NCBI GenBank assembly: GCA_044377005.1
Contig: JBILJV010000001.1
Span: forward strand, 34,999-98,998
Origin: Bacteroidia bacterium
GTDB lineage: Bacteria > Bacteroidota > Bacteroidia > NS11-12g > UBA955
DNA: 64,000 bases
Reading direction: 5' to 3'
Shown: positions 20,909-24,116 of the stretch, piece by piece
Position numbering within the stretch: position 1 is the stretch's first letter
How the letters are laid out: each line of letters opens with the position of its first letter
Position numbers and translations under genes: made by a program
The notes under the pieces: model-generated
What the model was told of the DNA's origin: nothing
Databases searched by the model: none
Seen by the model: only the letters and a program-made list of their open reading frames with translations

Positions 20909-21027
20909 TGGGGGTTTTATTGAACTACGGAAACCTAATTAAAGGAATTTATTTTATCAAAACCTAATCCGATGATCAGCTTAAGTTTGTAATACAACAA
21001 ATTTTAACGCCTAAATTTCAATCAAAC

Positions 21028-21115
21028 ACCTTACTACCCACTCTTATCATATTGCTGCCACAATGTATAGCTAGCAAGTAATCACTAACTCATGCTCATG
21101 GAAACGATTTGGAAG
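21028..21115. repeat. Left direct repeat: decayed duplicate of the yggS 3' end (att-like)
   Basis: About 90% identical over ~88 bp to 23096..23183, with 8 mismatches and 1 indel; includes the stop-codon position; out of frame, so non-coding. Confidence 0.8.
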
Positions 21116-21226
21116 TTGTTTTTAAAAATTAAAGCCAAAGTCAGCAAACACAGGGAAGCTTGATATTTCTGGAGCGTTGATGGGGTTATAAACTTAAATC
21201 TACTTTTTTTAATAAGATTAATTAAG

Positions 21227-21257
21227 AAACAATGCAAGTTATTTACTTGCATTGTTT
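21227..21257. terminator. Perfect palindromic hairpin (13-bp stem), terminator-like
   Basis: AAACAATGCAAGT-tattt-ACTTGCATTGTTT followed by TTCTT; downstream of the minus-strand small ORF. Confidence 0.4.
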
Positions 21258-21302
21258 TCTTGATTGGATGATATTTACTTTTATCAAAATTATTATATAT
21301 AA

Positions 21303-21593
21303 TTAGGAAAATATTATAGCTCTCAATATAATAATAACAAATATTAACATTGAATTTAAAACAAATGTTCTCCTTTGCTTTTTATTTAAATTCCCCTTTA
21401 ACCTATTTCTATTAAACAAAACATAGAGAAACAATAGCAAAACAAGATAAATCCATAAATTGGGGACTCCCAGATAATTATTAAATATTGGCATTAATAC
21501 TACTATATCTAAAATGATTACTCTAATAATAAATTCATTTTTAGAAACTTCTTCAATAATTGGGTTATTCTCTTTTTCGTTTGATCTATTCAT
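21303..21593 (-). CDS. Small multi-TM membrane protein (immunity-protein-like)
   Basis: 96 aa; 2-3 hydrophobic helices; basic inter-helix loop (NRNRLKGNLNKKQRR); lies directly downstream of the Cys-rich lipoprotein gene. Confidence 0.45.
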   Translation of the reverse strand: MNRSNEKENNPIIEEVSKNEFIIRVIILDIVVLMPIFNNYLGVPNLWIYLVLLLFLYVLFNRNRLKGNLNKKQRRTFVLNSMLIFVIIILRAIIFS

Positions 21594-21638
21594 TTGTGTG
21601 GTAATTTTAATTAGAAATTTAAAAAAAAATATTCAAAC

Positions 21639-22349
21639 TCAATTACAAAAAGTATTTATACCACTTGAAGTTAGAAATTCATTTCTTGTTGGATTTAGCA
21701 ATATACTTCTAAAAGCACTAGGACAATTACCATAATGAGTATCAAGTGCATCATTATAACAAACTCCATGTGCAGCAACACATAATCCAATGCCGATAAA
21801 ACCACCCCCTAATGTAAAACCGGCTGTTATAGCAGCACCAACAATACAAACAGCATAATATCTATCACAAGATTTAATTGCATTTCCTGCGGCTTTACAT
21901 GCTTGGGAAACATTAGCTTTGGAAACGTCAGATCTTCCTAAAAGTCCACTAAGATGATTGCCAATAATAATATAATCTTCATCAGTTAAACTTCCAATAC
22001 TCATGTTTTGCAAATTTTGAATACTTGAAGTATACGACGAGATAAATTCATCAAATTCTGGGTTTGATTGAAGTGTAGCATATATTTCATTTGAAGTTAA
22101 CCCACTTGATAACATATTTCTCAATTGACAAAATTGTTCATTACTTAAATTATCAAAAGCAATTGATATACTTTTAACATTTAATGCAATATTATAATGT
22201 AAATTTTGCTCAACCAACAAAGATTCATTAAATAAGTTATTTCCCTTTTGAGAAACCTCCACGATTTTATCATTTTTTGTGGTTTTTTCTTTATTACATG
22301 CATTAAACATAAGAATAGTAAATACCATTAAAACCAATTTTATTAACAT
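21639..22349 (-). CDS. Lipoprotein with C-terminal Cys-rich glycine-zipper hydrophobic domain (bacteriocin/toxin-like)
   Basis: Lipobox ILMFNAC; C-terminus GAAITAGFTLGGGFIGIGLCVAAHGVCY with 7-8 Cys; start could alternatively be the upstream ATG at 22412. Confidence 0.45.
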   Translation of the reverse strand: MLIKLVLMVFTILMFNACNKEKTTKNDKIVEVSQKGNNLFNESLLVEQNLHYNIALNVKSISIAFDNLSNEQFCQLRNMLSSGLTSNEIYATLQSNPEFDEFISSYTSSIQNLQNMSIGSLTDEDYIIIGNHLSGLLGRSDVSKANVSQACKAAGNAIKSCDRYYAVCIVGAAITAGFTLGGGFIGIGLCVAAHGVCYNDALDTHYGNCPSAFRSILLNPTRNEFLTSSGINTFCN

Positions 22350-22654
22350 AGTTTTATGGTTTATTAGACTTAATAGGACTCTTAAATGATTTTTTAAAAT
22401 GAATTTTTTCATGATTTTTTATATTTATATTTTTTGCTTACTCTTGCCTTTTTCAGCATTCAGGGTATCGGGGTCGGGTGAGAGGCCGTCTCTTTTGTTA
22501 TTCAACATTACAAATGAATATCTATTTTTTTTGATTTAAAAGGAATAAATTATTCCATTTTTACTCCATTTTTGGAATAAAGTGGAATAATAATGTCACA
22601 ATAATGCTATATTTTTTAATTCAACTTGTAATTATAATTTTCTGAAATTGAATA

Positions 22655-23024
22655 ATGAAAACGATTGGATTCAACCTGATATAAATAAATATTAAAGAAA
22701 GGCAAACCAAAATTGAACATATTGCTAAATCAATAGGCGTATCAAATGGTGAGTTATCAAAAATATTAAATGGAGAAAGGCTTAATTACTACAAACACAT
22801 TCTTGCTATAGCCGATTATTTCAACCTTTCTTTTTTGGAATTAGTAAAAAATGACCTTCCCAATTATTTAAAAAACTTCTCCATCCGAAAACGCTGAGGT
22901 GTTTTTACTCAACAAATACATTGCTCAATGTAATGAAACGATTAGTTCAAAAGATGCCACTTTAAACACCCTTGACAACTTGGTTAAATCTGAACGTGAA
23001 GCCAAAGAAAGCTACAAACGCTAA
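22655..23024 (+). pseudogene. Decayed XRE-family HTH regulator (in-frame TAA at codon 10 plus a downstream frameshift)
   Basis: MKTIGFNLI*INIKERQTKIEHIAKSIGVSNGELSKILNGER matches the Cro/C1 HTH signature but is interrupted by a stop at 22682-22684; the C-terminal tail continues in another frame. Confidence 0.45.
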
Positions 23025-23095
23025 TACGAAAACTGTAAAGAAAAATTAAAACTGGCAGAAGGTAAAAGAATTTGATTCTATCTGTCTTAATCCCC

Positions 23096-23183
23096 TCACT
23101 CAAACACCTTACTGCCCACTCTTATCATATTGCTGCCACATTGTATGGCTAGCAAGTAATCACCACTCATGCCCATGGAAATG
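23096..23183. repeat. Right direct repeat: the authentic yggS 3' end
   Basis: Partner of 21028..21115; contiguous with the intact yggS reading frame. Confidence 0.8.
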
Positions 23184-23743
23184 GTTTGGAAGTCGGGGAA
23201 CAGATTTAATGCTTTTATGTTGTCGAAATAGTGGCGAAGTTGTTTGAATTCCTTTTCGACTTGCGCTTTATTGTCGGTGTTGCTTGCCATACCCATCAGT
23301 CCCATGATGTTGATGTTTTTAAATTCACTTAATTGAGGGTGTTTGATGAGTGTCATTAATTCTTCTTCTGATAAGCCAAATTTGGTTTCTTCTGAGGCAA
23401 TATAAACTTGTAATAAGCAATTGATGACCCTGTTATTTTTGAGTCCTTGTTTGTTTATTTCTTCCAATAGTTTAAAACTGTCCACACTTTGAATCAAATG
23501 AATAAACGGCGCAATGTATTTAACCTTGTTGGTTTGTAAATGACCTATTAAATGCCATTTGATATTATCGGGTAAGGCTTCTTTTCTTTCCAACAAAGCT
23601 TGAACTCTGTTTTCAGCAAGGTGTAACATGCCCGCCTCATACACTTGTTTAATTTCTTCGATTGTTCTGTATTTGGAAACAACAACCAAATCAACATTTT
23701 GGCCTATTTCTTGTTTAATTCTTAATATGTTTTCAGCAACCAT
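23096..23743 (-). CDS. yggS: YggS-family PLP-binding protein (PLP homeostasis)
   Basis: N-terminal LVVVSKYRTIEEI with the PLP-lysine context; about 215 aa, a single alanine-racemase-N-like barrel. Confidence 0.85.
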   Translation of the reverse strand: MVAENILRIKQEIGQNVDLVVVSKYRTIEEIKQVYEAGMLHLAENRVQALLERKEALPDNIKWHLIGHLQTNKVKYIAPFIHLIQSVDSFKLLEEINKQGLKNNRVINCLLQVYIASEETKFGLSEEELMTLIKHPQLSEFKNINIMGLMGMASNTDNKAQVEKEFKQLRHYFDNIKALNLFPDFQTISMGMSGDYLLAIQCGSNMIRVGSKVFE

Positions 23744-23759
23744 TATATTTGCAAAATTA

Positions 23760-24116
23760 ATGAAACCTTACGTGTATTTTTTCTTTTTGATTTTTGTGTT
23801 TTCTTCATGCCAATCGGGAGACAAACTCGAGGTGGTAGATTCTAAACCAGATTGGGTAATTGAAGAGAATAAAATGATTGATATCATTATGGATTTAAGG
23901 GTAGTAGAAGCCGCAGTGTATATCAATTCCAATCAAGCGCCAAGAAACAAAACCAAAGATTGGGAGTTTGTTATGAAAAAACACCAAGTCGTTGACAGTG
24001 TTTTTATAAAAAGTCACGAGTATTATGCTGGATATCCTCAAGTTCTCTCTGGAATGTACGAGAGAGTGATTGATAGATTAAGCGAAATGCAAGCCGAAAA
24101 TTACGAAAATCAATAA
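23760..24116 (+). CDS. Small lipoprotein (start refined to the internal ATG)
   Basis: MKPYVYFFFLIFVFSSCQ lipoprotein signal; the track ORF start at 23628 would overlap the yggS 5' end. Confidence 0.55.
   Translation: MKPYVYFFFLIFVFSSCQSGDKLEVVDSKPDWVIEENKMIDIIMDLRVVEAAVYINSNQAPRNKTKDWEFVMKKHQVVDSVFIKSHEYYAGYPQVLSGMYERVIDRLSEMQAENYENQ

Follow-up and report, generated by a model that had tools for sequence, protein, structure and literature searches.

A mobile lipoprotein and small membrane-protein gene pair with a putative disulfide-stapled glycine-zipper hairpin in a Bacteroidia bacterium

We analyzed a short gene island in a 64,000-nucleotide stretch of AT-rich DNA (32.9% GC) from a Bacteroidia bacterium (contig JBILJV010000001.1, positions 34,999 to 98,998), which as a whole is referred to below as the window. 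The island carries a lipoprotein gene, a gene for a small membrane protein, and the remnant of an XRE-family regulator. The two open reading frames (ORFs) in which the initial annotation saw a candidate lipoprotein toxin of 236–257 aa and its 96-aa immunity protein were both confirmed, at 21639-22412 (minus strand, 257 aa) and 21303-21593 (minus strand, 96 aa). We tentatively read the pair as an effector that acts on membranes and its cognate membrane protector, i.e., a system of the toxin-immunity kind, and assign this reading a probability of roughly 40%. The two genes and their immediate features are the following.

21639..22349, minus strand: lipoprotein gene, 236 aa from M22, with a signal peptide and lipobox, a helical N-domain, and a Cys-rich C-terminal domain
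22350..22412, minus strand: N-terminal extension of the 257-aa ORF, 21 codons
22296..22349, minus strand: signal peptide and lipobox (MLIKLVLMVFTILMFNAC), with C18 and K20 invariant in the family and no export signal after them
21723..21905, minus strand: predicted helical hairpin, residues 149–209, with six cysteines, C-x9-C-x6-C-x21-C-x6-C-x11-C, and a 21-residue hydrophobic glycine-zipper tip
21303..21593, minus strand: small membrane-protein gene, 96 aa, with three predicted transmembrane (TM) segments, TM2 and TM3 being joined by a strongly basic loop
21229..21266, minus strand: stem-loop directly 3' of the small gene, minimum free energy -19.7 kcal/mol, z = -5.7 against 200 shuffles

Relatives of the lipoprotein are few. 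Searching 5.8 billion proteins by indexed words retrieved nothing beyond the lipoprotein's own 90% cluster. Two 230-aa proteins at 25–28% identity and one fragment emerged when 1.84 billion representatives were searched exhaustively with HMMER, and a profile search contributed two further relatives, one of them 331 aa long. The HMMER and profile searches together yielded four distant relatives with 22–27% identity to the window lipoprotein. All family members share the lipobox, an N-domain that is helical and has an (N)LSNEQFC-like motif, and eight conserved cysteines other than that of the lipobox. Neither 2.9 million viral contigs nor two metagenome scans contained a member of the family.

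The lipoprotein most likely starts at M22 (22349), giving a 236-aa product, because the distant homologues begin straight at the signal peptide with no counterpart of the 21-codon extension, the extension evolves in a near-neutral manner (5.2 nonsynonymous against 0.8 synonymous changes between strain variants), and the remainder of the gene is constrained (omega 0.11–0.15; P=3e-6 against neutrality). The extension (22350..22412) is probably an untranslated leader. The lipoprotein itself is under purifying selection, the C-terminal hairpin domain being its most constrained part (omega 0–0.14). The lipoprotein stop codon and the start of the 96-aa ORF are 45 nt apart, a layout that fits a two-gene operon whose genes would be co-transcribed, and the stem-loop at 21229-21266, which a simple terminator scan missed, is the likely terminator of this operon. 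Scans of the island for Rfam families, tRNAs, promoters, and terminators gave nothing meaningful. A GC-rich patch (GACGGCCTCTCACCCGACCCCGATACCCTGAATGCTG) lies at 22455-22495 (minus strand) within the otherwise AT-rich lipoprotein leader; no Rfam family or tRNA matches it, and its folding is no stronger than that of shuffled sequence.

From M22, a hydrophobic stretch leads to the lipobox LMFNAC. The lipobox Cys is invariant in 7/7 aligned family members, as is the Lys two residues further on, and by virtue of this hydrophobic signal and lipobox the 236-aa protein is a predicted bacterial lipoprotein, i.e., a substrate of signal peptidase II (SPII). Surface lipoproteins of Bacteroidota carry an export signal, K-(D/E)2 or Q-A-(D/E)2, after the lipidated Cys (PMC5080379). 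Neither form occurs at this position in any homologue: the sequences CNKEKTTK (window, where the longer stretch reads CNKEKTTKNDK), CKKETNSQ, CTKNDSLK, and CKKERSVE contain one acidic residue each and are net neutral to positive. Since the export signal was not found, the prediction is a periplasm-facing lipoprotein that is not released; the authors who described the lipoprotein toxin BcpT reasoned likewise from the export signal for its partner BcpI (PMC9308784).

The eight cysteines of the mature lipoprotein, together with that of the lipobox, amount to 4.1% of residues against 0.92% in the other proteins of the window (P=2e-4). The hydrophobic segment AVCIVGAAITAGFTLGGGFIGIGLCVAAHGVCYNDALDTHYGNC, on which the proposal of a toxin had been founded, is present in the lipoprotein, and both its glycine-zipper character and the Cys richness are real and conserved in all four distant homologues. 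The family pattern is C-x9-C-x6-C-x(17-21)-C-x6-C-x(10-11)-C, followed by a Cys 1–3 residues from the C-terminus, and it is also found in the homologues P0034, P0035, and P0037. Between the innermost cysteines lie 17–21 residues with a mean Kyte-Doolittle value of 1.2–1.7, about half of them Gly, Ala, or Ser. A glycine zipper was called where (G/A/S)xxxGxxxG, the strict motif defined in PMC12744356, or GxxxGxxx(G/S/T) occurred within the hydrophobic segment. The window protein has the strict motif as AITAGFTLG, and all four distant homologues have it too, the zipper motifs including AFATGGWAG in P0034, SAFTGPAWG and GPAWGVVLG in P0035, and AAFTGPAWG and GPAWGFFLG in P0037.

The cysteines bracket this segment symmetrically. 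In the window lipoprotein, the position sums of the three Cys pairs are 358/358/360, in agreement with the predicted turn at residues 176–181. In 4/4 divergent sequences the sums of the inner and middle pairs are equal (358/358, 357/357, 370/370, 556/556), and that of the outer pair is one or two higher. Such symmetry is what an antiparallel helical hairpin with three nested disulfides requires, and hence the C-terminal domain is probably a disulfide-stapled helical hairpin, not a single TM helix; the glycine-zipper segment is more likely the tip of this stapled hairpin than a free TM helix. The bonds predicted for the window lipoprotein are C151-C209, C161-C197, C168-C190, and C74-C235. An AlphaFold model of the window lipoprotein, built on a 7-sequence alignment, is all-alpha (predicted template-modelling score, pTM, 0.68; pLDDT, the predicted score in the local distance difference test, about 80–90 in the N-domain and 59–86 in the C-domain), with helices at 149–175 and 182–206 and a turn at FTLGGG, the center of the Cys symmetry. 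The model of P0035 is all-alpha as well (pTM 0.71). The hairpin rests mainly on the Cys symmetry and is not secured by structure prediction alone. A saposin-like or CHCH-like fold was considered and dropped, as only the idea of nested disulfides is common to them and neither sequence nor fold gave support.

These features bear directly on the initial suggestion of a membrane-inserting helix like that of class II bacteriocins, which is probably wrong in detail, given the symmetric Cys bracketing and the hairpin in one AlphaFold model. A diffusible or surface-displayed bacteriocin, in which the released lipoprotein, or a C-terminal fragment of it, would kill relatives through the zipper helix in a class II-like manner, would agree with the conserved glycine-zipper motif, with eight cysteines that would stabilize an extracellular protein, with the precedent of BcpT (PMC9308784), and with the occurrence of a secreted protein inside the cassette of one lineage (described below). 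We nevertheless find it very improbable: neither K-(D/E)2 nor any other acidic export signal is present in any homologue, a leader peptide and genes for a transporter or protease are lacking, and a free membrane-spanning helix is hard to reconcile with the paired cysteines at either end of the segment. The missing export signal weakens the idea of a released bacteriocin, and an effector that is delivered in another way would still be compatible with it.

Searches for known families gave no credible match for the lipoprotein. Scans of the window proteins, the family members, and their partners against Pfam, NCBIfam, PHROGs, and PADLOC produced sub-threshold noise only. At E<=1, none of seven family members matched a Colicin, glycine-zipper 2TM, or Gly-zipper family in Pfam; no PHROG match of the lipoprotein was better than E=0.005, and those found were families of unknown function; PADLOC assigned zero families to the lipoproteins and small membrane proteins, only the XREs matching generic helix-turn-helix (HTH) models. 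A PDB sequence profile search with the lipoprotein family found nothing. Foldseek searches with the two AlphaFold models gave nothing at E<0.1 (best values 0.3 and 1.1 in the PDB and 0.13 in a viral library), and among the top 50 PDB matches of either model there was no colicin and no SlyB. The top Foldseek matches, the alpha-pore-forming toxins SmhB/AhlB (E=0.3, TM-score 0.16) and BCL-xL/MCL-1, are not significant and were not used. A match to the pore-forming toxin BSAP5b (E=0.0018) was rejected, as it covers only residues 1–48, i.e., the signal peptide, and so was one to Riean_0653 (17 bits against a cut-off of 57). The library, PDB, and Foldseek searches likewise returned no clear match to a non-toxin structural family. 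By these searches, the lipoprotein is almost an orphan, with no known relative in annotated families.

Pore-forming colicins consist of a helical bundle around a hydrophobic hairpin, and the E1-type immunity proteins have about 113 aa and three helices. Colicins resemble the window lipoprotein in being all-alpha with a hydrophobic helical hairpin near the C-terminus, and the downstream partner, with about 100 aa, three helices, and a predicted N-in/C-out orientation, also fits. They differ in that the window lipoprotein has no Colicin match in Pfam or Foldseek and no translocation or receptor domains, and is predicted to be lipidated and disulfide-rich.

A lipoprotein anchor combined with a glycine-zipper helical element that presumably lies in the membrane is known from SlyB, YfgH, OsmB, and YiaD (bioRxiv 10.64898/2025.12.22.696046). 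The window protein, whose predicted glycine-zipper helical hairpin follows the general design of these 2TM glycine-zipper lipoproteins and which is predicted to face the periplasm, could by analogy stabilize the envelope in the manner of SlyB, YfgH, or OsmB, inserting in the outer membrane and oligomerizing there, with an accessory partner and no role in conflict. This explanation is distinctly unlikely in our judgment. The four comparison genes are chromosomal envelope-stress genes of Enterobacteria, whereas the window gene is extremely rare, is accessory and mobile, and comes with an XRE and a membrane partner, and neither the glycine-zipper Pfam families nor the SlyB structures were recovered in the searches above. 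Its eight conserved cysteines and helical N-domain of about 100 residues are unlike the SlyB group as we know it, and to our knowledge that group has no Cys ladder, dedicated membrane partner, or XRE.

The partner protein of 96 aa was initially described as having two to three TM helices and a basic loop; it has three hydrophobic segments, and its loop NRNRLKGNLNKKQRR contains 7 K/R in 15 residues. By the positive-inside rule, its N-terminus would be cytoplasmic and its C-terminus periplasmic. That the ORF is coding is suggested by its length in AT-rich DNA, by a frame that is intact in all variants of the window's own cluster, by its membrane architecture, and by the analogous genes in distant lineages. 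In the L001 lineage, whose lipoprotein is 96% identical to that of the window, the small ORF has accumulated 10 nonsynonymous and 2 synonymous changes compared with 6 and 14 in the lipoprotein gene (Fisher P=0.009), a pattern consistent with relaxed constraint or with a cognate partner that is diversifying. The small protein encoded there (L001:855-1157) is four codons longer at the N-terminus than that of the window (21303-21593), and the replacements are mostly conservative hydrophobic swaps.

A small membrane protein is encoded 3' of the lipoprotein in 4/4 lineages, with lipoproteins that are 22–39% identical. In 3/4 lineages it follows directly and has three TM segments, at a distance of 22–45 nt from the lipoprotein gene: besides the window, these are L090 (101 aa, 33 nt downstream) and L092-94 (113 aa, 22 nt downstream). 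In L086 and L091, a 64-aa protein with two TM segments comes after an inserted gene with a type IX secretion system (T9SS) tail. This inserted gene (L086:6761-7720, L091:3402-4361) encodes a protein of 319 aa whose C-terminus has a weak T9SS sorting domain and which may be a further secreted component of the module. The recurrent arrangement supports the two genes as a genuine conserved pair and makes the 96-aa protein a candidate cognate partner or protector of the lipoprotein. Pairwise comparison of the small membrane proteins across lineages revealed no significant similarity, only position and architecture being conserved; this lack of recognizable similarity and the fast evolution in L001 resemble what is often seen in cognate immunity proteins.

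On the other side of the lipoprotein gene lie the following features.

22648..23075, plus strand: XRE-family pseudogene, divergent from the lipoprotein operon, with four lesions relative to an intact 142-aa orthologue
22548..22596, no strand assigned: possible XRE operator, four TTATTCC/GGAATAA half-sites within 50 bp in the spacer between the XRE and lipoprotein genes

The XRE regulator had been called dead, and comparison with the L105 orthologue bears this out, revealing an ATG to TTG change of the start codon, a 2-nt deletion near 22683, a 1-nt insertion near 22870, and an AAA to TAA change at 23022. Intact 142-aa orthologues are present in L103, L105, and L106. The remnant scores 21.7 bits against HTH_3, for which the cut-off is 23, whereas the XREs of the distant loci exceed the cut-off; the remnant and these XREs align weakly, at 22–23% identity, including part of a common C-terminal tail. 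An XRE gene is adjacent to the pair in 3/4 lineages, and the XRE proteins match phage repressor families and defence-associated HTH models. The cluster of half-sites at 22548-22596 suggests an XRE operator; three TTATTGC/GCAATAA sites are found in the divergent XRE-lipoprotein spacer of L092. Between L103:1398-1826 and L105:3328-3756, the synonymous divergence of the XRE gene is 0.62, compared with 0.086 for the lipoprotein gene of the same loci. This gap indicates that the cassette is mosaic: the lipoprotein/membrane-protein pair looks recently shared, and the regulator older or recombined in.

The island is bounded by direct repeats.

21018..21116, no strand assigned: distal repeat copy, 99 bp, a diverged and frame-disrupted duplicate of the yggS 3' end with a 1-nt insertion, marking the island boundary
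23096..23193, no strand assigned: proximal repeat copy, the native 3' end of intact yggS (23096-23743, minus strand)

Horizontal acquisition, part of the initial proposal, is borne out by these 99-bp repeats, by empty sites in sister strains, and by a second genomic context. The insertion comprises 2,078 bp at the 3' end of yggS, and its GC content is 27.4% against 32.9% for the window. The repeat corresponds to the last 33 codons of yggS, its two copies being about 91–94% identical depending on the alignment, and the yggS-proximal copy is the native one because the contigs with empty sites match it wherever the two differ. In the empty sites (L097, L099, L100, L101), a 157-aa gene abuts yggS with one repeat copy. 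The closest relative of this neighbor gene is from a "Bacteroidia bacterium" metagenome-assembled genome (MAG; 92%), and the next ones, at 42–58%, are mostly from Chitinophaga/Chitinophagaceae or other Bacteroidota MAGs.

Between the 157-aa gene and the yggS 3' end (20909-23095 in the window) lies a strain-variable integration hotspot. Its cargo in L098 is a 1610-aa PKD/T9SS protein and a 139-aa protein, and in L095 it consists of methylase fragments (restriction-modification), GmrSD, and AbiC; in L105, the cassette and the PKD gene stand in tandem, with a copy of the yggS 3' repeat bordering each of them. The island's interior (21121-23067) recurs at 89–90% identity in L103 and L104 in the other context, which has no yggS repeats and lies between unrelated genes for a 418-aa secreted protein and a 130-aa four-helix membrane protein (L103:1398-3363 and L104). 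Since its limits are the same in the two contexts, the cassette of about 1.95 kb is a discrete, accessory, mobile unit. No integrase, transposase, or recombinase was found in the 2-kb island or adjoining it. A 55-aa ORF at 21085-21252 (minus strand), whose end ...FQIVSMSMS mirrors the C-terminal region of YggS, is a by-product of the yggS duplication with its frame shift and not a real gene. At the other end of yggS, the ORF called for a 162-aa DUF4296 protein (23628-24116, plus strand) overlaps the 5' end of yggS (23096-23743, minus strand) by 116 nt; the real start is probably a later Met, the calls in related contigs being 118–129 aa long.

The four lesions of the XRE gene, the missing integrase, and the neutral-looking substitutions of the small ORF in the L001 lineage are what might be expected of a decaying, non-functional remnant of a larger integrated element, with ORFs persisting by chance or on the way to loss. 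This explanation is hardly credible in view of the strong purifying selection on the lipoprotein (P=3e-6), of both ORFs being intact in every recovered variant and across contexts, and of cassette limits that are identical in two genomic contexts.

The content of the hotspot bears on a possible role in phage exclusion, i.e., superinfection exclusion or abortive infection, in which the lipoprotein and the small protein would block DNA entry or collapse the membrane and the XRE would act in a CI-like manner. The parallels are cI-rexA-rexB of phage lambda and the lipoprotein exclusion factors Llp, Cor, and Ltp. Action within the cell's own envelope suits a lipoprotein with no export signal, L095 has restriction-modification, GmrSD, and AbiC genes in this very hotspot, and the att-like 99-bp repeats lie at the 3' end of a gene. 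The XREs match phage repressor families and defence-associated HTH models, and in L086 the order XRE-lipoprotein-...-membrane protein on one strand is like that of cI-rexAB. We regard phage exclusion as unlikely, because no family member is encoded on the 2.9 million viral contigs, neither structural protein matches PHROGs or PADLOC, and no phage genes or integrase adjoin any locus; the prophage exclusion lipoproteins Llp, Cor, and Ltp, by contrast, are phage-encoded. A unimolecular spanin with a holin was dropped for want of an endolysin, of the right gene order, and of phage context, and so was an entericidin-type lipoprotein pair, for which there is no match and from which the window pair differs in that its partner protein is no lipoprotein.

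An effector acting on membranes, together with its cognate membrane protector, remains our preferred reading. The conserved pairing, XRE linkage, accessory mobility, constraint on the lipoprotein, symmetric cysteines with the zipper, fast-evolving partner, and location in a hotspot with defence genes all point to it; mobility, the link to a regulator, a constrained membrane-seeking element, a fast-evolving partner, and a defence hotspot in combination argue for a conflict module. In such a module, the lipid-anchored and probably periplasm-facing lipoprotein would present a disulfide-stapled hairpin with a glycine-zipper tip; the tip would insert into a membrane and perturb it or oligomerize there; the co-transcribed three-helix inner-membrane protein of 96 aa would neutralize the effect of the hairpin in the producer; and the regulator, where a strain has it intact, would act on the TTATTCC operator sites to repress the operon. 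We infer the disulfide ladder, the topology, the co-transcription, the XRE control, and the functional reading as a whole. There are precedents for its separate elements: channel-forming antibacterial effectors are almost always neutralized by polytopic membrane proteins (PMC12744356), and in Bacteroidales the SPII lipoprotein toxin BcpT has a small immunity gene downstream (PMC9308784).

Several observations weigh against an effector and its protector. The family amounts to five clusters among 5.8 billion proteins, and the comparative evidence is accordingly thin. In the library, PDB, and Foldseek searches, neither protein resembles any known toxin or immunity family in sequence or fold. With no export signal, the lipoprotein has no predicted route to the cell surface or vesicles, and the cassette holds only the XRE, the lipoprotein, and the small membrane protein, with no secretion or transport genes and with housekeeping genes as its neighbors. 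As to the hairpin, the innermost disulfide, if formed, would prevent the 17–21-residue tip from spanning a bilayer as a single helix, and residues 160–208 of the P0035 model are one continuous helix by DSSP. Finally, the small membrane proteins of different lineages may be non-homologous, and no orphan immunity genes were detected. The original idea of a toxin/immunity-like pair therefore holds in part: the pair is conserved and mobile and has a precedent in BcpT/BcpI, whereas no match to a bacteriocin, colicin, glycine-zipper toxin, or immunity family and no secretion gene accompany it.

The nearest of these precedents, BcpT/BcpI of the Phocaeicola vulgatus plasmid pBCPT (PMC9308784), comes from the same phylum and likewise combines an SPII toxin with an immunity gene directly downstream, in one operon on mobile DNA; BcpT and the window lipoprotein are also alike in having no similarity to characterized toxins. 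The differences are considerable. BcpT has 499 aa, is likely located on the outer surface, and needs proteolytic activation, whereas the window protein has no export signal and is distinguished by the putative Cys ladder and glycine-zipper hairpin; BcpI is a 57-aa lipoprotein, whereas the partner in the window is a polytopic membrane protein. No NCBIfam or Pfam model links the window lipoprotein to BcpT, and beyond this the two were compared by description.

Other systems share single elements of the design. CdzC/D-CdzI (PMC5380434) and TelE, EsxX, and TspA (PMC12744356) are like the window pair in having (G/A/S)xxxGxxxG in a hydrophobic stretch close to the C-terminus, an adjacent small or polytopic membrane protector, and accessory loci; CdzC/D and TelE/EsxX/TspA are exported by type I or VII systems (leader or LXG domains), are not lipoproteins, and are not described as Cys-rich. 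The window zipper, in contrast, is bracketed by paired cysteines as a probable hairpin tip, and homology to these proteins was not detected. No dedicated export system, i.e., a type I transporter with a leader or an LXG/type VII system, is encoded near the window pair. The SitA proteins of myxobacteria (PMC8546572) are lipoprotein toxins with cognate immunity genes, are polymorphic, and move with outer-membrane content in outer-membrane exchange. SitA depends on this exchange, and the window lipoprotein, unlike such toxins, has no recognizable enzymatic toxin domain. SitA proteins are modular, and their toxin domains are mostly enzymatic; we know of no outer-membrane exchange system in Bacteroidota.

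A more specific proposal is that the cassette represents a previously undescribed class of envelope conflict modules in Bacteroidota, made up of a stapled zipper hairpin, a fast-evolving three-helix neutralizer, and an XRE repressor, moving between hotspots as a recombinase-free unit of 2 kb and serving as a contact- or vesicle-delivered bacteriocin or in phage exclusion. Taken as a whole, this proposal is somewhat doubtful. The significance of the locus is limited by the extreme rarity of the family and by a function read from sequence and model.

Were the lipoprotein and its partner indeed an effector and protector, the disulfide-stapled, lipid-anchored glycine-zipper hairpin would be a structurally new membrane-active effector design, and its partner would bring a new architecture of small immunity proteins to the few antagonism systems of Bacteroidota known outside gut Bacteroidales. 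The locus would then also represent a minimal 2-kb cassette that hops between hotspots with no recombinase of its own. The conserved Cys pattern provides a simple handle for finding further members of the family and putting them to the test. Whatever the function of the pair, strains exchange defence genes, a giant adhesin-like gene, and the window cassette through the hotspot at the yggS 3' end.

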